Positions 6,781-25,477 of a DNA stretch of 32,000 nucleotides are shown here, piece by piece. The notes beneath the pieces were generated by a model. That model worked only from the letters and a program-made list of their open reading frames with translations, was not told the DNA's origin and searched no databases. Made by a program: the position numbers and the translations under genes. Each line of letters begins with the position of its first letter. Within the stretch, counting starts at the first letter, position 1. The DNA comes from Chloroflexota bacterium (GTDB taxonomy: Bacteria > Chloroflexota > Anaerolineae > UBA2200): contig JACIWX010000001.1 of the NCBI GenBank assembly GCA_014360755.1, positions 640,441 through 672,440 of the forward strand. The letters are read 5' to 3'.

Positions 6781-8054
6781 AAAGGATCCGCTTCCTGGAT
6801 TACTTCAACCTAAGTGTCTATTGGTTCGCCCTCTCTTACCTGTGGAACAGCATGGGACCTATCATCTTGCCCAATCTCATTGCCCCGCCGATGGTAGACG
6901 AGGCGATCAAGGGCTCAGCCTTGGGGTTGCTCAGCGCCGCTGGCCTGATTATTGCCATCATCGTACAACCGGTAGCTGGATTCATCAGCGACCGCAGCAC
7001 CTCTCGCTTTGGCCGCCGGCGTCCTTACCTCTTGGTCGGCACGCTTTTTGACCTGATCTTCCTGCTGGGCATTGCGCTCTCTACAAAATACTGGTTCTTA
7101 TTCCTCAGTTACATCCTGCTGCAGGTCTCATCCAATGTAGCACATGGTCCATACCAGGGCCTTATCCCGGATTTGGTTCCCGAAGAACGCCGTGGTACCG
7201 CCTCAGGCGTCAAGCAATTTGCTGAGATCGTGGGCATCATTGTTACTTCGCTAGCCACTGCAGCATTGATGGCTAAGGGTCAGACCCTGCTGGCGATTGG
7301 CGTCATCATGGCTGTGCTCACCGTAACGATGCTTATCACGGTCATCGGGGTGCGCGAGGAGCCGCTCCGGGATGCGCCAAAGCAGTCATTGCGCGAAACG
7401 ATGCTGGACACCTTCAAGGTAGATCCCCGCAGATACCCCGATTACTTTTGGCTGCTCCTATCGCGCTTGTTCGTCGTCATGGGCATGAATTTGGTGCGCA
7501 ACTATGTGCTCTATTTTGTCGCTGATGTGGTGATTGGACCAGAAGTGCCCTATGCGGAACGCCTGGCGCAAGCCAATAACCTGAGCGGCAGTCTATTAGC
7601 CATCATTGCCGTCGCTATTGCCATGACTGCACTGCCCACTGGCGTGCTTTCTGATCGCCTGGGCAAAAAGCTGCTGGTGCTCCTTTCCAGCATCCTGGGA
7701 GCATTGGGCGCCTTTCTTATGGTCTTTGCCAACGGTCGCACCCTCTTCACGCTTGGGGGCTTCCCCCTCATGGACATCCTTATCTTCGGCAGCCTCATTG
7801 GCTTGTCCGCCGGCATCTTTCTCAGTGCAAACTGGGCATTGGCTACAGACCTTATTCCGAAAGAAGAGGGAGGACGCTATCTGGGCATCTCTAACTTAGC
7901 CACAGCCGGGGCAGGGGTGCTCGCCGGCATTGGTGGGCCGATCCGTGATTTTCTAGGGTATACGGCGCTGTTTTTGAGCGCCTGTCTGTGTTACGTGTTG
8001 GGTACCCTGTTACTGGCAAAGGTGCACGAACACCCCAGTTCCACAAAGGCATAA
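6777..8054 (+). CDS. MFS-type transporter (GPH-like)
   Basis: The ORF opens at 6699. The ATG at 6777 has AGGAGG (6761-6766) upstream and an ATGA overlap with the upstream stop. The product has about 12 hydrophobic helices and the SDRSTSRFGRRRPYLL loop motif typical of MFS/GPH carriers. Confidence 0.8.
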   Translation: MKRIRFLDYFNLSVYWFALSYLWNSMGPIILPNLIAPPMVDEAIKGSALGLLSAAGLIIAIIVQPVAGFISDRSTSRFGRRRPYLLVGTLFDLIFLLGIALSTKYWFLFLSYILLQVSSNVAHGPYQGLIPDLVPEERRGTASGVKQFAEIVGIIVTSLATAALMAKGQTLLAIGVIMAVLTVTMLITVIGVREEPLRDAPKQSLRETMLDTFKVDPRRYPDYFWLLLSRLFVVMGMNLVRNYVLYFVADVVIGPEVPYAERLAQANNLSGSLLAIIAVAIAMTALPTGVLSDRLGKKLLVLLSSILGALGAFLMVFANGRTLFTLGGFPLMDILIFGSLIGLSAGIFLSANWALATDLIPKEEGGRYLGISNLATAGAGVLAGIGGPIRDFLGYTALFLSACLCYVLGTLLLAKVHEHPSSTKA

Positions 8055-10295: not shown

Positions 10296-10337
10296 GTCCT
10301 TCACCTCCTATGTTTGCCACATACTTTGAGGCCAACT

Positions 10338-10393
10338 CTAGTGATGTTATCATTTGATAGAACCATACCACCCTAGTGACATTATCATTTGAT
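10338..10393. repeat. Two 21-bp direct repeats (19/21 identical), 35 bp apart, in the intergenic region upstream of the 8103-10295 TIR gene; possible operator
   Basis: The copies are CTAGTGATGTTATCATTTGAT (10338-10358) and CTAGTGACATTATCATTTGAT (10373-10393). Each contains the short inverted repeat ATCA-TT-TGAT. They lie 43-98 nt upstream of the start codon at 10295. Confidence 0.6.
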
Positions 10394-10415
10394 TTGGAGC
10401 GGCTCGACTGGGTGG

Positions 10416-13091: not shown

Positions 13092-13176
13092 TATTCCTCC
13101 TAATGATCTTGCGAAGCTCCTGCAAGCCATCGAGTGAGCAAGGGGTATGGTTCCCCGACACAAGCTATCCCCTTGA

Positions 13177-14373
13177 TCACTCGTATATCCCCGCCTCGAG
13201 CACGCTTACCCCTTCCATATCCAACAAAGTGTCCCGTCGGCTGATCTCTCCCCGGACGAGAACCCACAAAGTGTGCCGTTTGTCCGCAATGTCCACACCG
13301 ACAGGCAAGGCAGCCTTAATCTGCTGGATAAGAGGAGAACGAGTGGCTGCCAGGCACGCTGCACCAGTGCCCAGGCTATGTGGCCCAGCGAGAACCATCA
13401 CAAGGCGGCCGGGATAATCGGGATGTGGCCCACGGACAATAATCCCGTGATCCATAACGTGGATAAGAGCCCCTTCCGTGCCTAGATACTCAGTCCTGCC
13501 TTCCACCAAGTCCACCTGACCATTCTTCGTGCGGTAGAGAGCAGTCAGGTAGTCTCCTTCCTCCTTTTCGCCGGGAAATGCCCCCAGAGTCCAATTGGGT
13601 TCGCGACCCTTTTGCAAACGTTGCAACATTTCTCGGACGGGTGGATTGCTCTTTGGAGAGCCAATCAGGTAGAGGTTTAACGGTCGGCTCAGCAGGTCTG
13701 GTGGGCTATATTGTCCTGAGACCAATTCCACGCCTCTGCCCTCGCCCATGATACATCCAAAAGCGGAGATGAGGCCAAGCACTCCCAGATTGTCGCCAAA
13801 CGTCCGTTGGTCATAGGCTTGAGCGCGAATGCGGCTGTCCTTGCCAGGGTATCTGGGGCTGGCGACGATGTAGGCTGGTGTGGGTATGTCCGCTTCCAGC
13901 ATGTCCCGCAGCAAAGCAATCTGCGCATTCACACGCGAACGAAGGTGATCTGCCAGGCGTTTGTCAAAGACCTCCATTGCTTCCCGGCTGCCACTATAGG
14001 AAATTACTTCCCTTCCCTTCAGATCGGTAGGCACGTCAACGCCTTCCTCGACGAGCAGCAACAACGGTTTCTGTACACCTACTGCATAGCCCACCTCGTA
14101 GAATACATTGGCGCTCGGGGTGCTGATTTCAGCAATCACCAGTTCTGCCCTCTCGATCAGCAAATGGATCTTGGCCAGTAAATCGTGGCCAGCACCATGC
14201 ACATCGTCAGCACGAATAGCCGCAAGCCCCACCGCCTGACGCACCACTTCGCGGATGTGCACGAAAAAGTCCCATCGGGATTTATATGGCATCACCACGA
14301 AGACATAGGGCTTGCCCTGGGTAAGCTCTTCAACGATATGCCCAAGGGCATACGATGAACTCTCTTTCCTCAT
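13177..14373 (-). CDS. Nucleoside 2-deoxyribosyltransferase/TIR-like N-terminal domain fused to an uncharacterised ~235-aa C-terminal domain
   Basis: ATG at 14373 with AAGGAGGG 8 nt upstream. The N-terminal pattern is YVFVVMPYKSRWDFF...IRADDV...LIERAELVIAEISTPSANVFYEVGYAVGVQKPLLLLV. It resembles the NDT-type D/E-x-G-T-x-x-E-x-G-Y-A block with a conserved Glu. I recognised nothing in the C-terminal domain. Confidence 0.6.
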   Translation of the reverse strand: MRKESSSYALGHIVEELTQGKPYVFVVMPYKSRWDFFVHIREVVRQAVGLAAIRADDVHGAGHDLLAKIHLLIERAELVIAEISTPSANVFYEVGYAVGVQKPLLLLVEEGVDVPTDLKGREVISYSGSREAMEVFDKRLADHLRSRVNAQIALLRDMLEADIPTPAYIVASPRYPGKDSRIRAQAYDQRTFGDNLGVLGLISAFGCIMGEGRGVELVSGQYSPPDLLSRPLNLYLIGSPKSNPPVREMLQRLQKGREPNWTLGAFPGEKEEGDYLTALYRTKNGQVDLVEGRTEYLGTEGALIHVMDHGIIVRGPHPDYPGRLVMVLAGPHSLGTGAACLAATRSPLIQQIKAALPVGVDIADKRHTLWVLVRGEISRRDTLLDMEGVSVLEAGIYE

Positions 14374-14416
14374 GACCACTTCCCTCCTTATAGGGAGTGC
14401 CTCTAATATAGTTCCA

Positions 14417-17317
14417 CTACGAAGCCGAAGCGGATGGATTGCAAAGGTCTGTCAGATTCGGGCATGTGGACTGGCACGGTTCGTCCTCTAGGAACTGCCG
14501 CCATTCCTTCGGGGTGAGGTTGCGATTGGCGATGCGACAGGCGCGAGCCCGCCACGAATCTAGACTGGCATCCCAGAGGATGATAGTGCCATCTAGGCTG
14601 CCAGATAACAAAGTACCGCCGTCCGGACTAAAAACCACGCTGTCCACCGCAGACCTGTGGCCAATGAGCGGCTTGCCTATGGCATGACCGCTTTTCACAT
14701 CCCATAGGATAATGGAGTTGTCCTCTGTGGGCGGAGACACTCGGCCGCTGCCAGATGCCAATATTCGCCCATCAGGACTGAAAGCAATGCTCTGCACTCC
14801 TACACTATGGCCTTTGAGCGGGGAAAAGAGGGGTTGACCGGTCGTGACATCCCACAGGATAACGGTGGAATCCTCTCCGCCTGATGCTAGGATATGGCTA
14901 TCTGGGCTGAAAGCGACGCTGTTCACCCAGAAAGCATGCCCACGCCATGGTTGGCCACATGGCATCCGTGTAGCGACATCCCAAAGGATGACCGTTCTAT
15001 CCATGCTACAGGAAGCCAACATCTTCCCATCTGGGCTGAATGCCACACTCTGCACCTCTGCACTGTGACCGGTTAATGGCTCGCCCAGTGGTCGATGCGC
15101 GGAGACATCCCAGAGGATAATGGTTTTATCCGCACTAGAGGAAGCCAATATCTTTCCATCCGGGCTGAAAGCAACACCCATAACCGATCGCGTATGCCCT
15201 GTCAAGGGTTCGCCAATGGCTTGCTGGGTCATCACATCCCACAGCATGACGGTATTGTCCTCGCTGCCAGACGCTAACGTCTGACCATCCGGACTGAAAG
15301 CAAGGCTGGTTATGAAAGACCTGTGTCCCTTCAACGGCTGGCCAATGGGCTGCCCTGTCTTGGCGTCCCATAGGATGATGGCGTTGTCCCTTCTGCCTGA
15401 GGCGAACACTTTGCCATGTGGGCTAAAAGCCAGGCTCCCAGTATAACCTGTCTCGTTGATGACAAGCTGGGCCAGCGGTTGGGACACCGTTTGCTGAGTA
15501 TTCCACAACATGATCAGAGTCCCACTGCCAGCGACCAAGGTTGCTCCATCTGAACTGAAAGCTAAGGACGGCACTCCTTCGGCGTGCCCGGTCGCTAGTG
15601 TGCCCAACGACTGATGTGTCTGCGCATCCCACAGAGTTACCGTGCCATGTCCACTACCTGATGCCAACACTCTTCCGCTGGGATTGAAAGCCAGGCTGAA
15701 TACCCCAGCGTCGCGACCAGTGAGAGGAATCTCCCCTATTGCTCCCCCGGCTGAGACGTCCCATATCATAATGGCATCATCGGCATCCCCGCCCGACAAG
15801 AGTGTTTTCCCATCTGGGCTGAAGGCAAGGCTAGTCACATAATGGCTGTGCCCTTCCAGGCGTGGCATCAGCGGTTTGAGGGTGGCAACATTCCAAAGAA
15901 CAATGGTGCGATAGGCACCTGCTGCCAATATGCGCCCATCGGGGCTGAAAGCGACCTCCTGTACCATTCCCCAGTGAGGTCCGAGTGGCTGACCAAGTGG
16001 TTCTCCTGTTGCCACGTCCCATAGAATCACAGTCTGGTCATCGCTGCCGGACGCCAACATCTTCCCATCCGGACTGAACGCGACACAGAGCACATGGTGC
16101 TGATGCCCTTTGAGAGGAGCAAGCACAGGCAAGCCAGTGGCTACATTCCACAGGATGATGGAGCCATCGGAACTGCCGGACGCCAGCATCTGTCCATCCG
16201 GGCTAAAAGCCACGCTGTTCACCGTGCCAGTATGTCCGGTGAGATGCCGTCCACCGGATTCAGGGTGCGTCGTATCCCAGAGCATAACGCTGCCATCTGC
16301 ACTGCCTGAGGCCAGCGTGTTCCCCTTTGGACTGAAAGCCACGCTGAACACGGAAGAGGTGTGGCCATGGAGAAAAGCAGTGAGATTGGGGCTGTGTTCT
16401 AACGCATCGAGCAGGCTAGCTCTGGCTTCTACAGTATCTGCGATGCGGCTGGCCTCAACAGCCAATAGCAGCGCCAAGTCAAGCTGATCGGAAAGGTGAG
16501 TCTGCGCCTGCGCTGCCAATTGGCGGGACAAAGCGATACGGCGTTGTTGCTCTGCGTTATCTCTCTGCGCGATTGCTTCTGCTTGAGCCGTAGCGCGCAC
16601 CCTAGCTTCCTCAACCGCAATGGCTTTCGCCTCTAGTGCTTCATTGCGTTGACCCCAGGCAACCAATGCCAAAACAGCAGTCACTACCAAGCCCAACGTA
16701 ACCGCTGCAAGCGTGGCTCTTTGCCGGTTTATTGCTGCCTTGCGACTGGCAAGGATGTACTCCACCTGCAGTGGAGTGGGTGTAGGTTCCTTTGTCGCAC
16801 TTTTGCCCAACCATTCCTCTGCCTCCTGGAGATCCCTGCCGCGTAGCGCAAAACTGTTGTCCCGTCCCTTGCTATCCCACTCTGTAGCACGCACGAGGAA
16901 CCGAGTATGTGCACGCACCCAGTCGAGATCCGTTTGAATGGCTTGCACCAACTTATCGAAAGACTGCTGGAAATCATCCTGCTCGCGGAAGAATATCCAA
17001 TGGAGCGAGGCAATCTCAGGAGGCAGGTCTCTAGGATCAAGATCGTGCAGCAGCACCGGTACCAATCGCTTGTGGTTTCCGAGGCCGTGCTCGATTTCCT
17101 TGCGACAGACCTCTGATTGGACCGATGTCTGGCTGACAATAAACACCAGTGTATCGGCCCCTTCGATGGCGCGATATACCTCAGACTGCCAGTCTGCACT
17201 AGGGGGAATATCCTCCCAGTCAACCCATATCTCTAGATCCCTGGCACGCAGGGCATCGTAGAGCACACGCGCAAAAGCAATATCCTTCCGTGAGTAAGAG
17301 ATAAAGACGTCTGACAT
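14417..17317 (-). CDS. TIR-WD40 protein: N-terminal TIR, one hydrophobic helix, coiled coil, 14 WD40 repeats
   Basis: ATG at 17317 with AGGAGA 6 nt upstream. TIR blocks are DVFISYSRKD, IWVDWEDI, LVFIVSQTSVQSEVCRKEIEH and LVPVLL. The hydrophobic helix is LAAVTLGLVVTAVLALVAW. There are 14 units of about 42 aa with the pattern L-x-GH-x-x-x-V-x-S-VAFSPDG-x-x-LASGS-x-D-x-T-(V/I)-ILWD. The C-terminal tail (ACRIANRNLTPKEWRQFL...TCP) is typical of bacterial WD40 arrays. Confidence 0.9.
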   Translation of the reverse strand: MSDVFISYSRKDIAFARVLYDALRARDLEIWVDWEDIPPSADWQSEVYRAIEGADTLVFIVSQTSVQSEVCRKEIEHGLGNHKRLVPVLLHDLDPRDLPPEIASLHWIFFREQDDFQQSFDKLVQAIQTDLDWVRAHTRFLVRATEWDSKGRDNSFALRGRDLQEAEEWLGKSATKEPTPTPLQVEYILASRKAAINRQRATLAAVTLGLVVTAVLALVAWGQRNEALEAKAIAVEEARVRATAQAEAIAQRDNAEQQRRIALSRQLAAQAQTHLSDQLDLALLLAVEASRIADTVEARASLLDALEHSPNLTAFLHGHTSSVFSVAFSPKGNTLASGSADGSVMLWDTTHPESGGRHLTGHTGTVNSVAFSPDGQMLASGSSDGSIILWNVATGLPVLAPLKGHQHHVLCVAFSPDGKMLASGSDDQTVILWDVATGEPLGQPLGPHWGMVQEVAFSPDGRILAAGAYRTIVLWNVATLKPLMPRLEGHSHYVTSLAFSPDGKTLLSGGDADDAIMIWDVSAGGAIGEIPLTGRDAGVFSLAFNPSGRVLASGSGHGTVTLWDAQTHQSLGTLATGHAEGVPSLAFSSDGATLVAGSGTLIMLWNTQQTVSQPLAQLVINETGYTGSLAFSPHGKVFASGRRDNAIILWDAKTGQPIGQPLKGHRSFITSLAFSPDGQTLASGSEDNTVMLWDVMTQQAIGEPLTGHTRSVMGVAFSPDGKILASSSADKTIILWDVSAHRPLGEPLTGHSAEVQSVAFSPDGKMLASCSMDRTVILWDVATRMPCGQPWRGHAFWVNSVAFSPDSHILASGGEDSTVILWDVTTGQPLFSPLKGHSVGVQSIAFSPDGRILASGSGRVSPPTEDNSIILWDVKSGHAIGKPLIGHRSAVDSVVFSPDGGTLLSGSLDGTIILWDASLDSWRARACRIANRNLTPKEWRQFLEDEPCQSTCPNLTDLCNPSASAS
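14542..16381 (-). repeat. Tandem array of 14 WD40-coding units of about 126 bp (intragenic repeat)
   Basis: There is periodic protein-level repetition (VAFSPDGKMLASGS...TVILWDVATG occurs nearly verbatim several times). The many spurious plus-strand ORFs of similar sequence across this interval reflect the underlying DNA periodicity. Confidence 0.8.
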
Positions 17318-17437
17318 TTGCTGTCTCCTAACTAAGAAGCATTTAACGACTTATAGAAGTGCCTTCACACTTGGCACAAGGTGCATTCCAATCCATCGCC
17401 ACGTCTTCTGCATTGTGTTCCCTCCAATAAGAAAGCC

Positions 17438-17752
17438 TCAGCGTCCCAACTTCTGACGCAATTGCTGGTAGTACTGCTCATCCGCTGGAGACACATACAT
17501 ACCAGCCCGCTTCATCTCCGAAAAGATGTCATACGCGCGCTGCCACCACTCAAGGGCTGTGGGGTCGCCCAAACGCTCCAGCGCATCGGCGATCCAGCAG
17601 CAAGCAACCCACAGATCGCGCTGCCAGCCGGCGTTGGATGGGTCCAACACCGCTAAGCGCTCACGGATCGCCAGACTCTCCCGATATTCTCTCAGTACAC
17701 CTGTCAAGTCTCCCTGCGCCTGCAGCACACTGGCAACCCTGTCGTGGCTCAC
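17438..17752 (-). CDS. Small TPR-like protein (104 aa); possibly an adaptor or a remnant of a longer TPR protein
   Basis: The GTG start lies 7 nt after the stop of the upstream RyR gene. The sequence VLQAQGDLTGVLREYRESLAIRERLAVLDPSNAGWQRDLWV matches the about 40-aa unit common in bacterial TPR arrays (GDLxGALxxYxxSLAIxExLAxxDPxNxxWQRDL). It is followed by a C-terminal cap. Confidence 0.55.
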   Translation of the reverse strand: MSHDRVASVLQAQGDLTGVLREYRESLAIRERLAVLDPSNAGWQRDLWVACCWIADALERLGDPTALEWWQRAYDIFSEMKRAGMYVSPADEQYYQQLRQKLGR

Positions 17753-17759
17753 GGATAGA

Positions 17760-19553
17760 TCATGCTACCATCCGGCGTTGGTAGGGCAGCCGGTACACCT
17801 GCAACCCTGCCCGTGCGAGGAAGCGCGGCAACTCGCGCACTACGTTGCGATCCTTTTCCTTCTCCGCTTCGGGCAGTTCGTCCCAGGGAACCAGGATAGG
17901 GCTGGTCTTTCGTTCCATGTCTTTGGGACCTGGGGCATAGCTCCAGCCTGCGCGTAACCGCTCTTCCACAAAGCGCTGATGTTCCATTTGTGCCATCTTC
18001 TCGACTTCCTCTGCCGTGAACTCGAACCGTTCCGCATCCCAGTCAGTCAACGGTGCTATACCATAGCCTACTGCCTTTAATTTCACCAAAATATGATCCG
18101 CTTGACACCGGTTCGATTCTTTGATCTCCTCCGGCAATTCCTCCCAACATACCAAGGAAGGATTCGTCGCTGGTGTTTCACCTAACCCTTGCTGGTGCCG
18201 CACATAGCTCTCATGAATAGCACGTGCCAACACCTCATGGGTGCCGCCGAGAATCAGTTCAGGACTACAAGTACGATCTAGCAATCCAAAGGCATAGGGG
18301 TTGTCAAAACCATCTCCTTCCGCGCTACGCAGGAGCAGCGCCAACCCCGTCTCGTGAGCCATGCGCACCACAATAGGAATTCTTTGCCCTCTTAAACGCT
18401 GCAGTAACGTCAAGCCTGTCTTTAAGCCAAGGGCATCGTTGTCCAGGCATACATATACCGCTGTTACATCGCAGTGCCCATCAGAGCCGAGCAGAAAACC
18501 CGCTTGCTCAAACTCTGGCCAGAGGATATCCATTTGCAGGACAGCCAGTTGGCAGGCTTTCTCCAATTTCGGATAACGTAGGCAGAGCGACGCTACTTTG
18601 CGCTTTGCTTCTCGATCGATGATGCTGATCCGCAGGGAACCATAAGTTTGCGTATAGTTGGTCCACCAACTCCTTGCCATATGGACTACCAGGCTCTCCC
18701 CCATGCGCCCCAAGCCAACAATGAGCACATGAGGTTGTTGCATCAATACACCGTCTTCCTCATGGAAGCACGGATGTTCTTCCAACAAGAGCCGGGCTCC
18801 ACGGTCAAAGATATTGAACAGTTCCAACCGATATGAAGGGACTGGTGACACTTCGCGCTCACGGAGCAGGTGGTATAGCCGCGCATCCACAATGTGCACA
18901 AAGCAAGTCAATGGACGCCCTTGGCGCGAAGCAACCAGCTCTCGGACGTGCACAGCAACCTCGGCATTGGTGCTGTCATCCCCACAGACGGAGAACACGT
19001 ATTTCGCCCTCGGAACCCCTGCCCGACACAGAACCCCTCGATCCTTAGCATTCCCCAGGGTCACGATGATACCTTCTTCCTGACACAATGTGATGAAATC
19101 GTTGTTCTCATCCTGCTCGATAACGACCACGCGCTCTCCCTGCTGGAGGAACCCCCGCGCTAAGAGCAATCCCATGCGACCTAACCCACAGATCACCACA
19201 TGATCGCGGATGAAACGCAAGCGCAACAATTGCACTTGCTCATAAAAGATCGTTACAAAAGTCTGTATAACCGTATAAGCAGCTACAGCCGGTGCCAACA
19301 ATCGTGCCGCTTGCAACTCCCAGCCTATAGGCGGAGGAACTGCTCCAGATTGCAGGGGAAAAAGCTGCAAAGTGAGGTAGAAAAGATCCCAGAACGAGCG
19401 ATTCTCGTTTAGCGCAGCAAAATGCTTGGCAAATCCAACATACCCCAGGTACAACGTGGTTAGCCACAGCCCAATAATCAAAACCCCTCGGTACTGAGAC
19501 CAATTACGCCAAACAGTTTGGCGCCAGGCTCTATTGGCTACTCTTTTCATCAT
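17760..19553 (-). CDS. 2TM pore-like membrane domain + two Rossmann (TrkA-N/RCK-like) domains + C-terminal tandem RyR-type repeats
   Basis: The start at 19553 is 9 nt after the upstream stop. The membrane layout is TM1 GVLIIGLWLTTLYLGYVGFA, a pore-helix-like segment SFWDLFYLTLQLFPLQSG and TM2 LLAPAVAAYTVIQTFVTIF. The TrkA-N domain reads VVICGLGRMGLLLARGF..VVVIEQDE..GNAKD..GDDSTN. A second GxGxxG is VLIVGLGRMG. The RyR repeats are AIHESY...WEELPEEIKESNR and MEHQRFVEERLRAGWSYAP...LVPWDELPEAEKEKDRNVVRELPRFLARAGLQVYRL. Confidence 0.75.
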   Translation of the reverse strand: MMKRVANRAWRQTVWRNWSQYRGVLIIGLWLTTLYLGYVGFAKHFAALNENRSFWDLFYLTLQLFPLQSGAVPPPIGWELQAARLLAPAVAAYTVIQTFVTIFYEQVQLLRLRFIRDHVVICGLGRMGLLLARGFLQQGERVVVIEQDENNDFITLCQEEGIIVTLGNAKDRGVLCRAGVPRAKYVFSVCGDDSTNAEVAVHVRELVASRQGRPLTCFVHIVDARLYHLLREREVSPVPSYRLELFNIFDRGARLLLEEHPCFHEEDGVLMQQPHVLIVGLGRMGESLVVHMARSWWTNYTQTYGSLRISIIDREAKRKVASLCLRYPKLEKACQLAVLQMDILWPEFEQAGFLLGSDGHCDVTAVYVCLDNDALGLKTGLTLLQRLRGQRIPIVVRMAHETGLALLLRSAEGDGFDNPYAFGLLDRTCSPELILGGTHEVLARAIHESYVRHQQGLGETPATNPSLVCWEELPEEIKESNRCQADHILVKLKAVGYGIAPLTDWDAERFEFTAEEVEKMAQMEHQRFVEERLRAGWSYAPGPKDMERKTSPILVPWDELPEAEKEKDRNVVRELPRFLARAGLQVYRLPYQRRMVA

Positions 19554-19562
19554 CTCAATTCT

Positions 19563-21068
19563 TCAGTGGCAAATTTGTGGGTCTACCCGATATAGCTTGT
19601 TCGTTTCGTTGTGGATCACCCACAGAAAACGCCCATCCCATGCCAGTCCTTTCCATGCCCACCAAACTGGCGCCGAAGGGAGATCAATCCTGCAAACACC
19701 TTGCATGGCTTGATTCACCTTCGTCAAATGATTGTCAACTAGCACCCAAAGATGTGTTCCGTCCCATACCAACCCAGATGCTCGGCTAGAAGGAAATATC
19801 CCAAAGTCCATAGCATAAGAATCCAACGTCTTTATCTCATTGCCCATCGGCCCAAGCTTGTATATCGCGCCCTCTGAAGAAGTCACCCACAAGTATTGTC
19901 CATCCCACGCAATATTTGTCGGACTGCCAAGGAAATCTTTCGGCATTTCGAAAAGAGTGGTTGTGGCGCCGGTTTGATCCTTAAGGCTAATGCCTTGATC
20001 ATCCAAAGCCCAAAACTGCTTTCGTGATTCATCCCAAGCCAACTCTCCCGGCGGCCAAAGGCATTCTTGCTCAGAAATGCGAAAACGGCTTTCCTCTTCT
20101 ACCAGTTCTAGCCTTACCTGCCCAGAAACAAATCGCACACACAAAGCCGAACCATCATAGATAACGCGAACGGGGTCATTGAGAGGCAACCTGTACGCCT
20201 TTATTGCCTCTGGTGTAGCCATGCCCACTGGCGTAGCCGTATAAATGGGGGCTGCAATAGGCATAACTGTCAATGTAGGAATCCGTGTGAAAGCACGAGT
20301 AGGACCTGCAGTTACTGTAGCAACAGGGGTAAAGGTAGCCATTTTCATCGCCGTAGGACTGTGCTTGGGAACCGATGTCGGTGAAGACACACTTGTAGCC
20401 GCCGTAGGGGAATACGTAGCTAGATTGGGGCTGGTCATCGCAGTAGATAATTGGAGCAATTTCCATGCTAGAAACACGATGACAGTGCCTTGAACCGTAA
20501 ATGCTACCGCTGCAATCCAGAACCATTTATGCTGCCACGGCGGCTTGGCTTCTTTATGTGGCACAACTGTTATCTCAGGTTGCCTTGCTCTAGGCAATGC
20601 GCTTAATTTCACCCCACCTGGCTCGGGCTCTCGGCTCTCACCCTTGCCCTGCGCCTCAATACCAAGGGCGTGCAAACCGCTGATGATGCGGGGAATAATT
20701 GGGGCAATTCCTTCAGGGGGAATGGTGATGGAAGAGGCGCTGCCCACCGCTTGCCGCCATAATGGCTGACGAATCTGAAACTGGCTATGGGTTACCTGGC
20801 TGAGCACAGGAATAAAAGGTTTGCCAGCTTCGTGAGCACGTACTACCTCACTGCTCACCTGGTTGGAGCCAAGCGAATGCACCGAGATAATGAGCACAAC
20901 AGCATGGGATTGTTCGATCGCTTGTCCTGTTTGCACGAGATAGGAGAGACCAGGGACACTATCCCGCTCATAGTACCAAACAGTATACCCAACTGCCTCC
21001 AGGCCTTGCGCAATCTCCAATGCAACTTGAGCATCTTCTTCCACATGGCTGATAAAAATATCGGCCAT
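19563..21068 (-). CDS. TIR domain protein: N-terminal TIR, one TM helix, S/T/P-rich linker, C-terminal beta-propeller-like domain
   Basis: ATG at 21068 with GAAGGAG 6 nt upstream (the ORF opens at 21104). TIR blocks are DIFISHVEEDAQVA, VWYYERD, AVVLIISVHSLGSNQVSSEVVRA and PFIPVL. The TM helix is WFWIAAVAFTVQGTVIVFLAWKLL. C-terminal repeats are IAWDGQYLWVTSSEGAIYKL, LVWDGTHLWVLVDNHLTKV and LAWDGRFLWVIHNETNKLYRV. Confidence 0.8.
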   Translation of the reverse strand: MADIFISHVEEDAQVALEIAQGLEAVGYTVWYYERDSVPGLSYLVQTGQAIEQSHAVVLIISVHSLGSNQVSSEVVRAHEAGKPFIPVLSQVTHSQFQIRQPLWRQAVGSASSITIPPEGIAPIIPRIISGLHALGIEAQGKGESREPEPGGVKLSALPRARQPEITVVPHKEAKPPWQHKWFWIAAVAFTVQGTVIVFLAWKLLQLSTAMTSPNLATYSPTAATSVSSPTSVPKHSPTAMKMATFTPVATVTAGPTRAFTRIPTLTVMPIAAPIYTATPVGMATPEAIKAYRLPLNDPVRVIYDGSALCVRFVSGQVRLELVEEESRFRISEQECLWPPGELAWDESRKQFWALDDQGISLKDQTGATTTLFEMPKDFLGSPTNIAWDGQYLWVTSSEGAIYKLGPMGNEIKTLDSYAMDFGIFPSSRASGLVWDGTHLWVLVDNHLTKVNQAMQGVCRIDLPSAPVWWAWKGLAWDGRFLWVIHNETNKLYRVDPQICH

Positions 21069-21241
21069 TGGCAGCTCCTTCTGTACCATTTTGGGTACTG
21101 ACAACCACAGCTAAAGGGGACGCAAAAGTATCACTGTTTTGAACTAGATACATCTATACAGGTATGTCAACTTGTTGTAGTATACAACCAAAAACCGGAT
21201 TGAGCAAGAGTTCTATACAAGTATCTAATTCAATCTATTTG

Positions 21242-21253
21242 TAGTAGTAGTAG
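21242..21253 (+). repeat. TAGTAGTAGTAG trinucleotide tract (DnaA-trio-like)
   Basis: Four perfect tandem TAG units sit at the edge of the AT-rich stretch inside the putative origin. Confidence 0.4.
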
Positions 21254-21395
21254 GATGGGTTGAAAAGGGGGAAAAAGTTTCCTAGGTACTAGGTTTTTTC
21301 TTATTAGAGCACAATTCGTAGGGCGTGCTGTGAAAAGTACTACCATAGATAGGGAAGCAAGTAATGGAGCAGAAGAGCGGTTTGTGCACAGGCAT

Positions 21396-21404
21396 TGTGG
21401 ATAA
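21396..21404 (-). promoter_or_regulatory. DnaA box, perfect consensus (TGTGGATAA on the plus strand)
   Basis: Exact 9/9 match to TTATCCACA on the minus strand. Confidence 0.7.
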
Positions 21405-21568
21405 ATACAGGACAATGTTTAATAGCGTGAAAAACGTATTGATCATGAAATGAGACGCTAGAAATTGAGGGGGGTGTGATATTGTACCCTATAGTTAGGA
21501 GCACACTGCATGGGGAAGGACAAGACAAAAACATTCCAGAGGTGGATTTATCCCCAGACAGGGGATAG

Positions 21569-21577
21569 TTATCCACA
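21569..21577 (+). promoter_or_regulatory. DnaA box, perfect consensus TTATCCACA
   Basis: Exact 9-mer, 21 bp from the next box in the same orientation, just past the dnaA stop codon. Confidence 0.7.
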
Positions 21578-21589
21578 ATAATTAGGCAC

Positions 21590-21598
21590 TTATCCACA
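21590..21598 (+). promoter_or_regulatory. DnaA box, perfect consensus TTATCCACA
   Basis: Exact 9-mer, 10 nt from the dnaA stop codon. Confidence 0.7.
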
Positions 21599-21607
21599 GA
21601 TTGATAG

Positions 21608-23017
21608 CTAGTGAGTCACAGGCACGCGCTCTTTGTACAATCGCTCTCTAATAGCCATCACATCACGGCGCAACTGGTCATCCTCTTCTATACCAACCTG
21701 AATTTTCTCACAGCCGTAGAGCACAGTCGTATGATCGCGTCCTCCAAGAATTTCACCGATTTGGGGCAATGAGCAACCAAGTTCTTCCTTCAACAGGTAC
21801 ATTGCCACCTGGCGGGGAAAGGCAATAGCATGGCTGCGCTGTCGGCTCTTCAACAGGTGTAGTTCCAAGCCGTAGTATTCACACACTGTCTCCAATACTT
21901 GTTCTGCTGTGATTGAATCGGATCTTGTCAGGATTCCCTTCAGAGCTGCGGTTGCCATTTCTATTGTAAGAGGAGACTTGGTCAATACCGCGTTCGCCAC
22001 CACCCGATTAAGGGCTCCTTCCAGCTCGCGCACGTTGCTGGGAAACTTTCCGGCAATATAGTCAATTACTTCTGGTGGAATTTGGACGGACTGTAGTTCG
22101 GCTTTTGCACGCAGGATAGCAATACGGGTTTCCAAGTCAGGGGGTTGGATGTCCGCAATTAGGCCTTGCTCGAATCGGGATTGGAGGCGTTTTTCCAGTG
22201 GCTTGATGGCGCGTGGCGGGCGATCGCTGGACATCACGATCTGCTTGCCTGCTTGGTACAGAGTGTTGAAGGTATGGAAAAATTCTTCTTGTGTGCTTTC
22301 TTTGCCGGCGATGAATTGGATGTCATCAATAAGCAGGATATCTACATGGTTGCGGTATTTGGCGCGAAATTCTTCAGTGCTTTGTGTGCGAATGGCATTG
22401 ATGAGTTCATTCGTAAAGGTTTCAGAGGACACATACAACACAGCAGGGGTCAAAGCCAGAGCTGCGTTGCCAATTGCCTGCAGTAGATGGGTCTTGCCTA
22501 ATCCTACTCCCCCATAGATAAAGAGGGGATTGTATTTCTTCCCCGGATTTTCAGCAACGGCTCTAGCAGCAGCGTGTGCCAAACTATTGGAGTTGCCGAC
22601 GACGAATGTTTCAAAGGTAAGCCTTGGGTTTAAGCCCGTATTCACAAGCAATTTTTGGGCATGGCTGGTCTGTGGTTTTGTCCAGGCAACGCGGGTTGGG
22701 AAACTAGGGGTTTCCTCATCCTGAGTCTCTAGCTCTAACAGGATATTTTCCTGTGCGGCCCTTTTGCTGCGCCGCGGATGGACAACAAACTTGATCTCTA
22801 CGGTCTGGCCGACAATGCCTATTAGGGTACGCTTAATGGTCGTGAGTAGGCGGTTTTCTAACCAATCTTTGGCATAGGCATTGTGTACTCCGATGACAAA
22901 TGTGCCGTCTTCATAGCTCAGCACATGGGTGTTTTTGACCCAGGTATCAAAAGTGGACTTGGTTAACTGCAATTGTAACTCGCCGAGTACTGCTTGCCAC
23001 GCTTGCTCAGCATTCAT
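21608..23017 (-). CDS. dnaA: Chromosomal replication initiator protein DnaA
   Basis: Unmistakable DnaA sequence: MNAEQAWQAVLGELQLQL..., Walker A GGVGLGKTHLL, Walker B ILLIDDIQF, SSDRPP, NVRELEGAL, and the C-terminal DNA-binding helix-turn-helix FPRQVAMYLLKEE...IGEILGGRDHTTVLYGCEKI. The ATG at 23017 has GGGAGA upstream. The ORF extension to 23122 is not DnaA-like. Confidence 0.97.
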   Translation of the reverse strand: MNAEQAWQAVLGELQLQLTKSTFDTWVKNTHVLSYEDGTFVIGVHNAYAKDWLENRLLTTIKRTLIGIVGQTVEIKFVVHPRRSKRAAQENILLELETQDEETPSFPTRVAWTKPQTSHAQKLLVNTGLNPRLTFETFVVGNSNSLAHAAARAVAENPGKKYNPLFIYGGVGLGKTHLLQAIGNAALALTPAVLYVSSETFTNELINAIRTQSTEEFRAKYRNHVDILLIDDIQFIAGKESTQEEFFHTFNTLYQAGKQIVMSSDRPPRAIKPLEKRLQSRFEQGLIADIQPPDLETRIAILRAKAELQSVQIPPEVIDYIAGKFPSNVRELEGALNRVVANAVLTKSPLTIEMATAALKGILTRSDSITAEQVLETVCEYYGLELHLLKSRQRSHAIAFPRQVAMYLLKEELGCSLPQIGEILGGRDHTTVLYGCEKIQVGIEEDDQLRRDVMAIRERLYKERVPVTH

Positions 23018-23269
23018 GTCAAGTCTCCCTGGAAATATCTGCATTTTAATATATTGACAACATGACCAGAGATTCAGAGTTCGCAAAGAATGCCCGTCAA
23101 GTGGTGACAGGGAAAAGAGCAAAAGAGGAACATATTTGCTCTACAAAGACGTCATTATTTGTGAAGGTCACAAAACCAGAGGAGATTTTCCCCCGCTGCA
23201 CTGGGGATTATTGTAGCCGATAGGCTTCTTTTTGGCAATCACGGGCAAGTCGCTACGGGTGCTGTATCT

Positions 23270-23278
23270 TTATTCACA
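23270..23278 (+). promoter_or_regulatory. DnaA box TTATTCACA (fits the relaxed consensus TTATNCACA) upstream of dnaA
   Basis: It is the only near-consensus box found by eye in the 480-bp dnaA upstream intergenic region. Confidence 0.45.
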
Positions 23279-23497
23279 GATGCTGCAAAGACACAACCTG
23301 TAGTGGTTCAGATTCGAAGGCAAACTAATTGTACGCTTTTTGCTGGTGCTCGCTTGAGCCAAAGATGCTACTCTAGTTTTAAGAATTTTTATCGTCAACG
23401 CTGAGGATTTTAGGGGGCTTTGCCTGGCTAGGTGTTTGCTTGTACACTAAGGCTAATTGCAATTCTGGTTTGATAGTCTATTTCATTGTAGGGACCA

Positions 23498-25477
23498 ATG
23501 CGTCGATTTGTATTCGTTATCTCCTTTTTCCTGGTTGTGATATCCCTGCCTATCGTTTTTCTGGCTGTGTGGCATCCTCGACGGGTGCAGGGTGCTGTGA
23601 GTGACGCCTTGACTGGTGAGGCTATTTCGGGCGCAGTCATCCAGGCTGGCAGGAGTGCTCTCTATGCAGACGGGGCTGGCGGTTTTGATTTAGGCTGGAT
23701 ATGCGGCACACGGACGATCACTGTGTATATGGATGGGTATCTTCCGCTGCAAGTAGAAGTGCCCAAGGCTAGATTCCCAAGCCAAATTGTATCCTTGCTT
23801 ATCCCCTTAACTCCTACTATGCTCTCAGGAACTGTGAGCGATGCTGAAACAGGAGCGCCACTGGCAGGCAGCATTGTAGCAGCAAACCATCTTTCTACCA
23901 CTACGGATGAACAAGGATACTATGTCCTGCACCGGGTCCGAACAGGGGCACTATTGAGTGCGTCCATGCCGGGTTATGAATCCGGCACAGCGATTTTCTA
24001 TGGACAGAAAGCACAGGATTTTACGCTGCAGCCTACAGAGACCCGAGTTCAGGTGCTGGACCTCTACTCAGGACAGCCTGTATCTGGCTCGTTGGTAATC
24101 TGGGGTTCTGCGCAGTTCAAGACGGATGTCAATGGCACTGCAGTCATTAAGCGCCTGCTCAACGGCTCGCTTTTGTCCATCCATGCCACTGGGTATGCAC
24201 CCACTGAGTATGGCTACAATGGTGGCAATCTAGTCTCCATTTGGTTACGGCCCAATACGTTGCGTGGCGTGGTCAGAGATAGCACAGACAAGCACCCTAT
24301 AGCCGGTGTTGAAGTGACCTTGCTTTCAGCCGGAGAAATAGTTGCTTCTACCCTTACCGACGAGGCTGGGCGATATGCCTTTCAAGATTTGCCTCCTTCC
24401 TCCCTGACACTGGTCGCTGCAGCCGTAGATTATGACCGCTTCGAGAGTTCAGTTGGTCCGGTCACGGAGATGGATGTTTACCTGCAGCGTTTCGAGGTGA
24501 AAGGCATTTACATGCCATTGGGCATTTTGACCAGCGAGAGAAGGGTGCGTGAACTCATCGAACTGGTCGATCGCACAGAGCTGAACGCCATCGTAGTAGA
24601 TTTGAAAAGCGATCGTGGTTGGTTGGCTTATCCCAGCGCGGAAATCAAGGCTCAGAAAAGCGGGGCATACCAGCCCAAGGTGATGGATATCAAACAGTTC
24701 TTGGCGCTGTGTAAGGAGAAGGGCATTTACACCATTGCACGTTTAGTGGTTTTCAAAGATTCGACTTTGGCTGCTGCTTATCCGGAACTAGCAGTGCACA
24801 AGCCTAATGGCGAATTGTGGGTGGACTTTGAGGGATCAGCGTGGCTTGACCCATTTCTCACAGAGGTGCAGGATTATAACATTGCTATTGCGAAAGAAGT
24901 AGCCCTACTTGGCTTTGATGAATTGCAGTTTGATTATTTGCGCTTCCCATCGGATGGCGACATTAGTGAAATCAGATATTCCCAAGAGAGCACCCTGGAA
25001 TCACGCTGCAGGACAATCAACGAGTTCTGTGCACGTTTGCAAAATGAGTTAAAGCCTTACGGCGTTCTCCTATCGGCGGACATCTTCGGATTGACCGTGT
25101 GGGTAGCACCAGAGGAGGACATGGGCATCGGGCAACGGGTTATGGACATCGCTCCCTACATGGACTATATCTCGCCCATGCTTTATCCGGCAACTTTTAT
25201 CAGCGGCAACCTCGGCTACGAGAATCCCCTCTTGTATCCCTATGAAGTGGTGTACCGCAGTTGTATGGAACTGGCTAAGCGCACTAAAACCCGCATCCGC
25301 CCATGGCTTCAACACTATTCATGGAACAATGTGGTCTATGGCGCAGAGGAAATGCGCTTGCAAAAACAAGCGGCCGCAGATGCCCAGACCTATGGGTGGA
25401 TGTTCTGGAACGCTGCCGGCAAGTATGATGCACAGTCCTTCAGTGTGGCGACAAAAGATAATCGTGCTTCAATTTAG
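23498..25477 (+). CDS. Membrane-anchored putative glycoside hydrolase (DUF4015-like TIM-barrel domain) with N-terminal carboxypeptidase-regulatory-like beta-sandwich repeats
   Basis: N-terminal TM helix, followed by repeated units of the type GTVSDAETGAPLAGSIVAAN...TTDEQGYYVL and GVVRDSTDKHPIAGVEVTL...TDEAGRYAF. The C-terminal part (VKGIYMP...ELNAIVVDLKSDRGWLAYPS...FDELQFDYLRFP) resembles the putative glycosyl hydrolase domain family. Confidence 0.65.
   Translation: MRRFVFVISFFLVVISLPIVFLAVWHPRRVQGAVSDALTGEAISGAVIQAGRSALYADGAGGFDLGWICGTRTITVYMDGYLPLQVEVPKARFPSQIVSLLIPLTPTMLSGTVSDAETGAPLAGSIVAANHLSTTTDEQGYYVLHRVRTGALLSASMPGYESGTAIFYGQKAQDFTLQPTETRVQVLDLYSGQPVSGSLVIWGSAQFKTDVNGTAVIKRLLNGSLLSIHATGYAPTEYGYNGGNLVSIWLRPNTLRGVVRDSTDKHPIAGVEVTLLSAGEIVASTLTDEAGRYAFQDLPPSSLTLVAAAVDYDRFESSVGPVTEMDVYLQRFEVKGIYMPLGILTSERRVRELIELVDRTELNAIVVDLKSDRGWLAYPSAEIKAQKSGAYQPKVMDIKQFLALCKEKGIYTIARLVVFKDSTLAAAYPELAVHKPNGELWVDFEGSAWLDPFLTEVQDYNIAIAKEVALLGFDELQFDYLRFPSDGDISEIRYSQESTLESRCRTINEFCARLQNELKPYGVLLSADIFGLTVWVAPEEDMGIGQRVMDIAPYMDYISPMLYPATFISGNLGYENPLLYPYEVVYRSCMELAKRTKTRIRPWLQHYSWNNVVYGAEEMRLQKQAAADAQTYGWMFWNAAGKYDAQSFSVATKDNRASI

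Follow-up and report, generated by a model that had tools for sequence, protein, structure and literature searches.

Why should two otherwise unrelated bacterial proteins end in the same tandem repeat of the ryanodine receptor (RyR) type, and why beside genes for TIR proteins? This question is raised by a cluster of seven open reading frames (ORFs) in a Chloroflexota bacterium (GenBank assembly GCA_014360755.1, contig JACIWX010000001.1, positions 640,441 to 672,440). The whole stretch of 32,000 nucleotides (nt) that was analysed is referred to as the window, and positions are those of the window except where the handle of another locus (L001 and so on) precedes them. One of the two RyR-capped proteins, of 597 amino acids (aa), is a membrane protein with a TrkA_N domain and is called channel-like below; the other, of 915 aa, is an ATPase. 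We argue herein that the RyR modules of both effectors are candidate binding sites for an ADP-ribose (ADPR)-based messenger made by the TIR proteins, a reading to which we assign a probability of about 0.6.

Precedents for such binding come from phages. RyDEP, a mycobacteriophage protein of the RyR family (PF02026), is a glycosidase that converts the 2' and 3' isomers of cyclic ADPR (2'cADPR and 3'cADPR) to ADPR (PMC13232231, a preprint). Six of eight phage homologues of RyDEP bound 2'/3'cADPR, and the two studied in detail are nanomolar sponges; the RyDEP pocket, made up of H75, W78, H100 and D117, resembles that of Repeat12 of RyR3 (PMC13232231). Another phage protein, RyR Tad (gp68 of Pectobacterium phage CB1), binds 3'cADPR with a dissociation constant (Kd) of 43 nM and also binds 2'cADPR and cADPR, the contacts being H129/W132, K147/H154 and K170/D171 (10.64898/2026.06.04.730250). 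Taken together, the affinities of the phage proteins for the cADPR isomers range from nanomolar to sub-micromolar (PMC13232231; 10.64898/2026.06.04.730250). Both preprints treat viral and animal RyR domains, not host effectors (PMC13232231; 10.64898/2026.06.04.730250). A description of host effectors with RyR modules was not found in the searchable literature, PADLOC or NCBIfam, and an earlier account elsewhere is possible. The link between TIR and RyR is known on the phage side, and the host-side arrangement appears to be undescribed.

Results

The same tandem RyR module ends two unrelated proteins

The C-termini of the channel-like protein and the ATPase scored 68.3 bits (E 6.9e-19) and 66.5 bits (E 2.5e-18), respectively, against PF02026, far above the gathering cut-off of 27.4 bits. 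Each C-terminus gave two PF02026 stretches, that is, two repeats in tandem, and repeats 1 and 2 of both modules aligned with both repeats of their orthologues and of gp68. BLASTP aligned the two modules to each other at 36% identity over 180 columns (E 3e-29), and the alignment was interrupted by a single gap of about 21 residues. Outside the modules the proteins are unrelated, one having a hydrophobic pair and a TrkA_N/RCK domain, and the other a ribokinase-like fold and an AAA+ core. A preliminary description, made by eye from the letters of the window, had noticed this shared module on two unrelated proteins, a divergent first repeat ahead of the conserved block in both, and an extra stretch of about 21 aa inside repeat 2 of the ATPase copy; the profile and BLASTP searches bear out all three observations.

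In both proteins, repeat 1 is shortened and more divergent (A-x-H-E-x-Y ... L-P-x-x-x-K-x-x-N-R) and is followed by a canonical repeat 2. In the channel-like protein, repeat 1 spans about aa 438-505 (H447, Y450, S480-N481) and repeat 2 about aa 506-590 (H525, F528, W537, K544, S551, K567-D568). The corresponding residues of the ATPase are H749, Y752 and Q780-N781 in repeat 1, and H824, W827, W836, N849 and K886-D887 in repeat 2. The single BLASTP gap coincides with the insertion RRLSAAERAALEPAVAVAIGDEP (aa 856-878, about 21-23 aa), which is variable among orthologues of the ATPase, some having it and others lacking it.

Both modules also matched the solved repeat domains of RyR1, RyR2 and RyR3, with E-values from 3e-21 to 1e-11 for Repeat12 constructs (best match in the PDB, 6UHI, 3e-21; RyR1/2/3 about 1e-17), and a "putative ryanodine receptor" from Bacteroides (3NRT/6UAG, E about 5e-10). 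Module identity is 43-62% within one host-protein family and 29-41% between families. Since the modules thus group by host protein, the fusions are old and have been maintained. A recent duplication of the module within the locus was ruled out, as the modules of orthologues are 43-62% identical versus 36% for the two modules of the locus. When the module was searched by tblastn against 50,697 phage records, only six weak matches were obtained, and the window modules are therefore not recent acquisitions from phages. Relatives of either effector family were likewise absent from 2.9 million viral contigs of IMG/VR.

Conservation of a putative ligand pocket in repeat 2

When gp68 was aligned with the window modules and other modules, H129, D171 and the G-W of the loop were invariant. 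The position of K170 is occupied by Lys in both window modules, and that of W132 by Trp in the ATPase module and Phe in the channel module. Among 117 repeat 2 sequences of the ATPase family, His was found in 117, Trp in 112, Lys in 106 and Asp in 116; among 119 of the channel family, the counts were 113 for His, 118 for Trp or Phe, 59 for Lys and 88 for Asp (Asn in 25). Judged from these alignments, the core of the pocket appears to be conserved in repeat 2 of both window modules. The C-terminal domain of gp68 is itself built in the same way, with a short first repeat followed by a full second one, and is about 31-33% identical to the window modules.

A pocket of this kind could cut its ligand rather than, or as well as, receive it. 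The modules would then be hydrolases that terminate the signal by breaking the ribose-ribose bond of 2'/3'cADPR, and each effector would carry its own off-switch, much as some CARF domains degrade cyclic oligoadenylate. This self-limiting hydrolase has to be taken seriously as a rival, given the presence of the His/Asp dyad: H75/D117 of RyDEP (PMC13232231) is matched by H525/D568 and H824/D887, and in the ATPase family by Asp in 116 and His in 117 of the 117 members. On the other hand, cleavage of 2'/3'cADPR was not seen with the remaining RyDEP homologues, despite binding (6/8) and high conservation (PMC13232231), so the dyad does not predict catalysis. Moreover, Asp is replaced by Asn in 25 of 119 members of the channel family, and a purely enzymatic role would not explain the fusion of the module to the C-terminal end of four or more different large proteins. 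We consider this explanation unlikely.

The same positions speak to the possibility that the module is a protein-protein docking domain, which would bring the effectors to TIR assemblies or to each other with no diffusible ligand. TIR domains do signal through higher-order assemblies, and the three TIR proteins and the channel-like protein are membrane-anchored. The conserved positions, however, are those of the small-molecule pocket of RyR Tad and RyDEP. Furthermore, conserved modules are paired with TIR partners that differ greatly in number and architecture, a pattern that suits a common small ligand better than co-evolving interfaces. Docking without a ligand thus seems very improbable to us.

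TIR genes adjoin both RyR-capped families

The preliminary description had called for a statistical test of whether bacterial RyR and TIR genes occur together. Profiles built from the domains of the window were run on every ORF of two samples seeded independently of each other, namely 80 genome loci reached via ATPase-RyR and 80 metagenome loci reached via channel-RyR. The TIR profile was iterated from the three TIR domains of the window and may miss divergent proteins such as those resembling the 400-aa protein of the cluster (see below), so that the TIR counts are lower bounds.

A TIR gene was present within 1.5 kb in 30 of the 80 ATPase-RyR loci, and within 5 kb in 39. The density of TIR genes around ATPase-RyR was 21 per 100 kb in the first 1 kb versus 1.4-2.1 at 5-10 kb (binomial p 7e-13), and around channel-RyR it was 18.8 per 100 kb within 1 kb versus about 1 at 5-10 kb (p 3e-8), a local enrichment of about 12- to 18-fold in the two samples. 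These p-values disregard kinship between loci, and the breadth across phyla together with the reproduction in a second sample is the stronger argument. Of the adjacent TIR genes in ATPase-RyR loci, 26 of 32 lie on the same strand. Adjacency was seen in Chloroflexota, Acidobacteriota, Actinomycetota, Syntrophomonadaceae, Desulfobaccales, an alphaproteobacterium and Cloacimonadales, that is, in at least seven phyla. The co-occurrence in question therefore proved to be a strong local enrichment (p 7e-13 and 3e-8, at least seven phyla).

Could independent systems simply have gathered in a variable region? Clustering of defence genes does occur in the absence of functional coupling, the genomes of Chloroflexota contain numerous TIR genes, and half of the loci are without a TIR gene. 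Nonetheless, the enrichment is limited to the first kilobase, favours the same strand, recurs in two independent samples and spans at least seven phyla, and the flanks of the window are housekeeping genes with no island. An accidental neighbourhood is, in our judgement, highly improbable.

The trio of TIR, ATPase-RyR and channel-RyR genes recurs in L005, in a chromosomal context without dnaA. In the close relatives L001, L003, L008 and L093, the channel, 400-aa and ATPase genes are kept and the TIR genes vary in number and architecture; turnover around a constant core is the pattern expected of diversifying sensors. In L008, a metagenome-assembled genome of Anaerolineae whose ATPase is 85% identical to that of the window, the MFS and hydrolase genes of the window's flank come immediately after ATPase-RyR. 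There is no TIR-TPR gene between ATPase-RyR and MFS in L008, and TIR genes are therefore gained and lost over short evolutionary times. A strict dependence of RyR proteins on TIR genes as a universal rule was refuted by L006, L007 and the 8 of 25 well-flanked channel loci that are partnerless; among well-flanked ATPase-RyR loci, 3 of 38 had no partner, TIR or other.

RyR caps within a nucleotide-signalling network

A SLOG-like protein of about 190 aa is encoded directly downstream of ATPase-RyR in 46 of the 80 loci. It carries the motif IGVTGHR...LAEGADR...WDG...GGT, is weakly similar to the YpsA-related SLOG family, and is sometimes fused to SLATT domains with two transmembrane (2TM) segments. 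The order ATPase-RyR, SLOG-like, channel-RyR is common. The window has no SLOG-like gene, and the gene of the 400-aa TIR-like protein adjoins the ATPase gene instead. Once SLOG and other partners are counted, one or more partners lie within 5 kb in 69 of the 80 ATPase loci, and in 35 of the 38 that are well flanked.

The tandem RyR module also ends other proteins (Table 1). RelA/SpoT-TPR-SLOG (LSDAT_prok) proteins, whose RelA/SpoT part is of the nucleotide pyrophosphokinase kind, terminate in it at five loci (L033, L078, L095, L099 and L101), and the same architecture occurs without the RyR cap in L019, L022 and L030. As a side observation, the RelA/SpoT-TPR-SLOG-RyR proteins unite in one bacterial protein two domains of animal cation channels, the SLOG domain of TRPM and the RyR repeat. 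A WD40 propeller ends in RyR in L015, and stand-alone RyR proteins of 150-260 aa occur beside channel-RyR and TIR genes. The stand-alone host proteins have the size of phage sponges; they could act as buffers, or the phage genes could derive from them. As a C-terminal cap, the RyR module is thus mobile and promiscuous within a network of nucleotide-signalling parts (SLOG-like, SLATT, RelA/SpoT). A Sigma54-interaction-type AAA+ protein of about 560 aa also recurs beside ATPase-RyR and 400-aa genes.

These neighbours bear on a further explanation, namely that the modules, in line with a proposal made for Repeat12 of animal RyRs, are general sensors of adenine nucleotides or metabolites (ATP, ADP, NAD+, linear ADPR) serving K+ homeostasis or housekeeping, with an effect of the TIR proteins that is indirect (e.g., through NAD+ depletion) or nil. 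In known K+ transport systems, RCK domains are themselves binding sites for NAD(H) or ATP. Channel-RyR genes are in many cases found alone amid housekeeping genes (L006, L007 and the 8 of 25 well-flanked loci), and the cluster of the window occupies a conserved chromosomal position adjacent to dnaA. Moreover, the same pocket accommodates adenine ligands in Repeat12 of RyR3 (cited in PMC13232231 and 10.64898/2026.06.04.730250). Such sensing does not, however, account readily for the sharp, same-strand and cross-phylum enrichment of TIR genes beside both RyR-capped families, for the co-occurrence with SLOG, SLATT and RelA/SpoT parts typical of nucleotide-signalling conflict systems, or for the turnover of TIR genes among close relatives, typical of sensor diversification. 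We regard a general metabolic sensor as quite unlikely.

Two effectors with different predicted outputs

The channel-like protein begins with two hydrophobic segments (TM1, aa 24-42, and TM2, aa 85-103) separated by a loop, and continues with an RCK/TrkA_N domain at aa 119-209. A further Rossmann-like domain (GLGRMG, aa 276-285) comes next, and the tandem RyR module forms the C-terminus. Between the hydrophobic segments lies a conserved pore-loop-like segment, FWDLFYLTLQLFPLQSG (aa 54-70); the family consensus of the loop is Y-L-T-L-Q-L-F-x-L-E-S-G, and the window protein reads LQLFPLQSG. The RCK region matches TrkA, KefC, Kch and GsuK. In an hhalign comparison with MthK, the RCK alignment begins at the end of TM2 and the pore region is unaligned. 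By its architecture the protein would be an RCK-gated 2TM channel, hence the term "channel-like", and conduction is putative. The channel-RyR family comprises more than 1,100 clusters at E <= 1e-5, all of them with TrkA_N and RyR.

The AAA+ core of the ATPase has a Walker A motif, GPPGSGKS (aa 482-489), and a Walker B motif, LVFWDEFD (aa 541-548); the true start of the protein is probably the ATG at 13091. No Pfam match was found in aa 1-454. The N-domain (aa 30-452) was modelled because a search of PDB sequences with a profile of the ATPase family returned RyR matches alone and none for this domain. The AlphaFold2 model had a mean predicted local distance difference test score (pLDDT) of 81.7 and a predicted template-modelling score (pTM) of 0.85. 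In Foldseek, its top 50 matches were without exception sugar or nucleoside kinases of the ribokinase family (E 3e-10 to 2e-7, TM-score 0.35-0.59), and the ribokinase/PfkB matches include pseudouridine kinase, HldA, nucleoside kinase and ketohexokinase. Motifs resembling those of the sugar site, G-D-x-x-x-D-W and G-G, are invariant in the family alignment of the domain. A clear DTxGAGD (G-A-G-D) catalytic motif is not evident in the domain, and the window protein reads D-T-A-G-A-L-L. On this model, the N-domain may bind or phosphorylate a ribose-containing molecule. The ATPase-RyR family comprises more than 1,750 clusters and occurs in at least 530 of 185,579 GTDB species genomes. Its members are 51-56% identical across Chloroflexota, Acidobacteriota, Planctomycetota, Actinomycetota, Firmicutes, Proteobacteria, Armatimonadota and methanogenic archaea.

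TIR proteins and remaining members of the cluster

Table 1. Coordinates of the cluster, its modules and related features (nt of the window, or of the locus named)
Feature	Position	Strand	Description
Tandem RyR module, channel-like protein	17784-18242	-	aa 438-590 of 597-aa ORF 17760-19553; PF02026 68.3 bits
Tandem RyR module, ATPase	10431-10952	-	aa 738-911 of 915-aa ORF 10416-13163; PF02026 66.5 bits
Insertion in repeat 2 of ATPase module	10530-10598	-	aa 856-878
Channel-like effector	17760-19553	-	597 aa; TrkA_N PF02254 (E 3.5e-19) and PF02026
ATPase effector	10416-13163	-	Ribokinase-like N-domain (modelled), AAA+ core, C-terminal tandem RyR module
N-domain of ATPase	11808-13076	-	aa 30-452
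TIR protein 1	19563-21104	-	TIR_2 PF13676 (E 2.1e-16); TM aa 195-213; Pro/Ser/Thr-rich linker
TIR protein 2	14417-17317	-	TIR; TM aa 201-219; coiled-coil-like stretch; about 14 WD40 repeats (E 3.9e-148)
TIR protein 3	8103-10304	-	TIR_2 PF13676 (E 1.2e-19); TPR_14; TM aa 317-335; Pro/Ser/Thr-rich linker; C-terminal beta-propeller-like domain
400-aa protein	13177-14379	-	N-domain of predicted TIR/DNPH1 (nucleoside 2-deoxyribosyltransferase-like) fold, invariant E95; C-terminal alpha/beta domain
104-aa ORF	17438-17752	-	Between channel-like gene and TIR protein 2; gene status uncertain
Whole cluster	8103-21104	-	Seven ORFs
MFS transporter gene	6699-8054	+	Bounds the cluster
dnaA	21608-23122	-	Bounds the cluster
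SLOG-like protein (examples)	L015:10449-11042; L021:7208-7789; L111:8137-9744		About 190 aa; downstream of ATPase-RyR
RelA/SpoT-TPR-SLOG-RyR	L033:15251-17785; L078:3243-6131 (-); L095:3266-5755; L099:3457-5946; L101:16221-18731		End in tandem RyR
WD40-propeller-RyR	L015:110-2830
Other RyR architectures	L135:4334-4867; L140:10043-10507; L103:334-894; L139:3290-3793; L055:16943-17737 (-)
Sigma54-interaction-type AAA+	L010:6566-8245; L037:4424-6115; L038:12761-14452; L089:6246-7910		About 560 aa

The seven ORFs of the cluster all lie on the minus strand with intergenic gaps of 7-120 nt, for example 9 nt between the genes of TIR protein 1 and the channel-like protein, and the arrangement is operon-like. 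The order of transcription is TIR-TM-propeller, the 597-aa TrkA_N membrane protein, the 104-aa ORF, TIR-TM-WD40, the 400-aa protein, the ATPase and TIR-TPR-TM-propeller. The three neighbouring TIR genes named in the preliminary description were confirmed with PF13676 at E-values from 1e-16 to 1e-19, and TIR protein 2 also matches TIR models of the PADLOC and NCBIfam libraries. E74 of TIR protein 2 falls in the conserved Glu column of an alignment with TLR and TIR-STING, and a matching Glu is visible in the sequences of TIR proteins 1 and 3.

Each of the three TIR proteins has exactly one strongly hydrophobic segment past the N-terminal TIR domain, followed by a large C-terminus of the WD40 or propeller type. 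The C-terminus of TIR protein 1 is beta-propeller-like, with a repeated "AWDG..LWV", and is related to that of TIR protein 3 (E 3e-5). The layout of TIR, TM segment and C-terminal domain is not peculiar to the window, being found in 66 of 99 TIR ORFs near RyR genes in the two samples. The TIR proteins are probably laid out like Toll-like receptors, with a cytoplasmic TIR domain and an external sensor.

No Pfam or NCBIfam library model names the 400-aa protein. It matches PF05014 and PF10137 weakly and a PADLOC model of TIR effectors at E 1.9e-8, and its AlphaFold2 model (pLDDT 88) matched TIR-STING, the TIR domain of MyD88 and DNPH1 in Foldseek. The family contains at least 396 proteins, and elsewhere its genes lie beside Sigma54-type AAA, TIR and TIR-NACHT genes (L089) or near RyR and SLATT proteins (L091). 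By the predicted fold of its N-domain it is a fourth TIR-like member of the cluster, and possibly an enzyme that makes or processes the signal. The 104-aa ORF had been taken for a "mini-TPR" protein. The ORF is indeed present; its TPR_12 match is weak (E 2e-4) and under the cut-off, and the related loci L001 and L003 have no gene call at the corresponding place. The ORF may be what remains of a TPR protein.

The flanking genes, which encode an ABC transporter, hydrolases, the MFS transporter, DnaA and a PALP enzyme, are of the housekeeping kind, and the placement adjacent to dnaA is syntenic in the relatives L001 and L003. The cumulative GC skew has its minimum near 21 kb, and the G+C content falls to 0.44 at 21-22 kb, beside dnaA. 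The skew minimum and the proximity of dnaA (about 20000-23500) are consistent with a replication origin adjoining the cluster.

Discussion

How would such a cluster work? The makers of the signal would be the three TIR proteins, possibly joined by the TIR/DNPH1-like 400-aa protein. Once their sensor domains are triggered, the TIR domains would convert NAD+ to an ADPR-derived messenger, most likely an isomer of cADPR. The messenger would be received by the tandem RyR module, an intramolecular pseudo-dimer that may correspond to the homodimer formed by phage RyR proteins and to Repeat12 of RyRs; repeat 2 of the module retains the His, aromatic and Lys-Asp positions of the pocket. As the module is shared, one signal could switch on two outputs. 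The first would be ion flux or membrane depolarisation through the 2TM-RCK channel-like protein, and the second the action of the ribokinase-like/AAA+ ATPase. In this scheme we infer the cyclase activity of the TIR proteins, the identity of the messenger, its binding by the module, activation rather than termination, ion conduction, and a role in defence against phages or in sensing of another kind.

The preliminary description had read the shared module as a common input for a ligand or a partner. The ligand form of this reading is supported by the linkage to TIR genes, by the binding of cADPR isomers to phage RyR proteins and by the apparently conserved core of the pocket. The resemblance to the cADPR-RyR axis of animals can be drawn as an analogy.

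Several observations weigh against a TIR-made messenger received by the RyR modules. With respect to the pocket, the His that contacts the phosphate (H100 of RyDEP, H154 of RyR Tad) is Ser in the channel-like protein and Asn in the ATPase and varies among the members of the families; the channel-like protein has Phe for W132; and repeat 1 retains His and an aromatic residue with Asn replacing Asp and a shortened loop. The supporting biochemistry comes from preprints on phage proteins. As for the outputs, both the K+ selectivity signature (T-x-G-Y/F-G) and an Ion_trans_2 Pfam match are absent from the channel-like protein. With respect to gene neighbourhoods, roughly one in two ATPase-RyR loci and two in three channel-RyR loci had no detectable TIR gene in the available flanks, the channel gene of L006 and L007 has only housekeeping genes around it, and the commonest neighbour of ATPase-RyR is the SLOG-like gene (46 of 80), not a TIR gene. 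In the flanks of the window, a defence island or mobile element was not found, the genes beside dnaA being housekeeping genes. Finally, PADLOC gave no match for the channel-like protein and only a spurious one for the ATPase, and NCBIfam has no model for either. Membership of a catalogued defence family was accordingly rejected for both effectors and the 400-aa protein, for which PADLOC and NCBIfam hold no model.

The closest known systems are those of the Thoeris kind. According to a recent survey, which lists 29 putative types, types I-XI are validated; among the types is an ion-channel type, X, whose signal is unknown (10.64898/2025.12.03.692087). As in Thoeris, TIR genes with a catalytic Glu adjoin effector genes, several TIR paralogues may occur in one locus, and one diffusible NAD+-derived signal would be expected; membrane or ion-channel effectors have precedents in types V and X. 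The differences are considerable. The receiver here is a tandem RyR (PF02026) rather than SLOG, Macro or other domains, and it is shared by two different proteins (elsewhere at least four). The TIR proteins are large, mostly anchored in the membrane and equipped with C-terminal propellers, whereas ThsB is small and cytoplasmic. Moreover, the cluster lies outside a defence island, beside dnaA. The terms RyR, PF02026 and TrkA are absent from the text and four supplements of the survey (10.64898/2025.12.03.692087). The cluster is thus Thoeris-like in logic and outside every described Thoeris type.

A similar logic is found in the CARF and SAVED domains of type III CRISPR and CBASS and in the SLOG domain of ThsA, where one ligand-binding module is placed on many outputs beside a signal synthase. 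The RyR repeat differs from these in being all-helical, and two effectors with the same sensor in each operon are the rule here. RyDEP and RyR Tad belong to the same Pfam family as the window modules and share the pocket residues, including an aromatic residue at position 132, but they are small sponges or glycosidases that remove a host signal, while the window modules are cellular and sit at the C-termini of effectors of 600-900 aa.

The channel-like protein invites two further comparisons. As in MthK, Kch, GsuK and TrkA/KefC, an RCK/TrkA_N domain follows directly on membrane segments, here two putative TM helices with a loop between them. Unlike MthK, Kch and GsuK, it has no T-V-G-Y-G filter, the loop being L-Q-L-F-x-L-(E/Q)-S-G, and it has gained a second Rossmann-like domain and the RyR module. 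With Repeat12 and Repeat34 of metazoan RyRs, the window modules share sequence similarity (E down to 3e-21), the tandem arrangement and the position of a cytoplasmic regulatory domain on a protein of the cation-channel type; the K-I-N-P variant of the ATPase module also resembles R-R-N-P of repeat 2 of RyR1. On the contrary, the bacterial host protein is a 2TM-RCK protein of about 600 aa and not a giant Ca2+ release channel with six TM segments, it has no other RyR/IP3R domains, and its module is C-terminal, whereas that of animals is internal.

A bolder version of the proposal places the entire pathway in bacteria and archaea, from a transmembrane TIR receptor, via the cADPR-type messenger that it makes, to a cation channel opened by way of an RyR domain. 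The RyR repeat would then be an ancient receiver dedicated to TIR-made ADPR signals, and the phage sponges would be captured copies of it. We hold this version to be tentative and on balance doubtful. If it were true, Repeat12 would be indicated as the long-sought site of cADPR-type action on RyRs.

If RyR modules do receive TIR-made messengers, TIR/Thoeris signalling would gain a new receiver domain and new outputs, namely the RCK channel-like protein, the ribokinase-like AAA+ ATPase, RelA/SpoT-SLOG proteins and a WD40 protein. The breadth of such signalling would be wide, with ATPase-RyR alone in at least 530 species genomes from many bacterial and archaeal phyla. The phage RyR sponges and glycosidases would be explained as mimics of a host receptor, and the channel-like RyR protein of about 600 aa would offer a tractable prokaryotic model for the action of cADPR-type ligands on ryanodine receptors. 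Under the same reading, TIR proteins that are anchored in the membrane and have external propellers point to "outside-in" sensing of a Toll-like kind in bacteria, unlike that of the cytoplasmic ThsB sensors studied so far.

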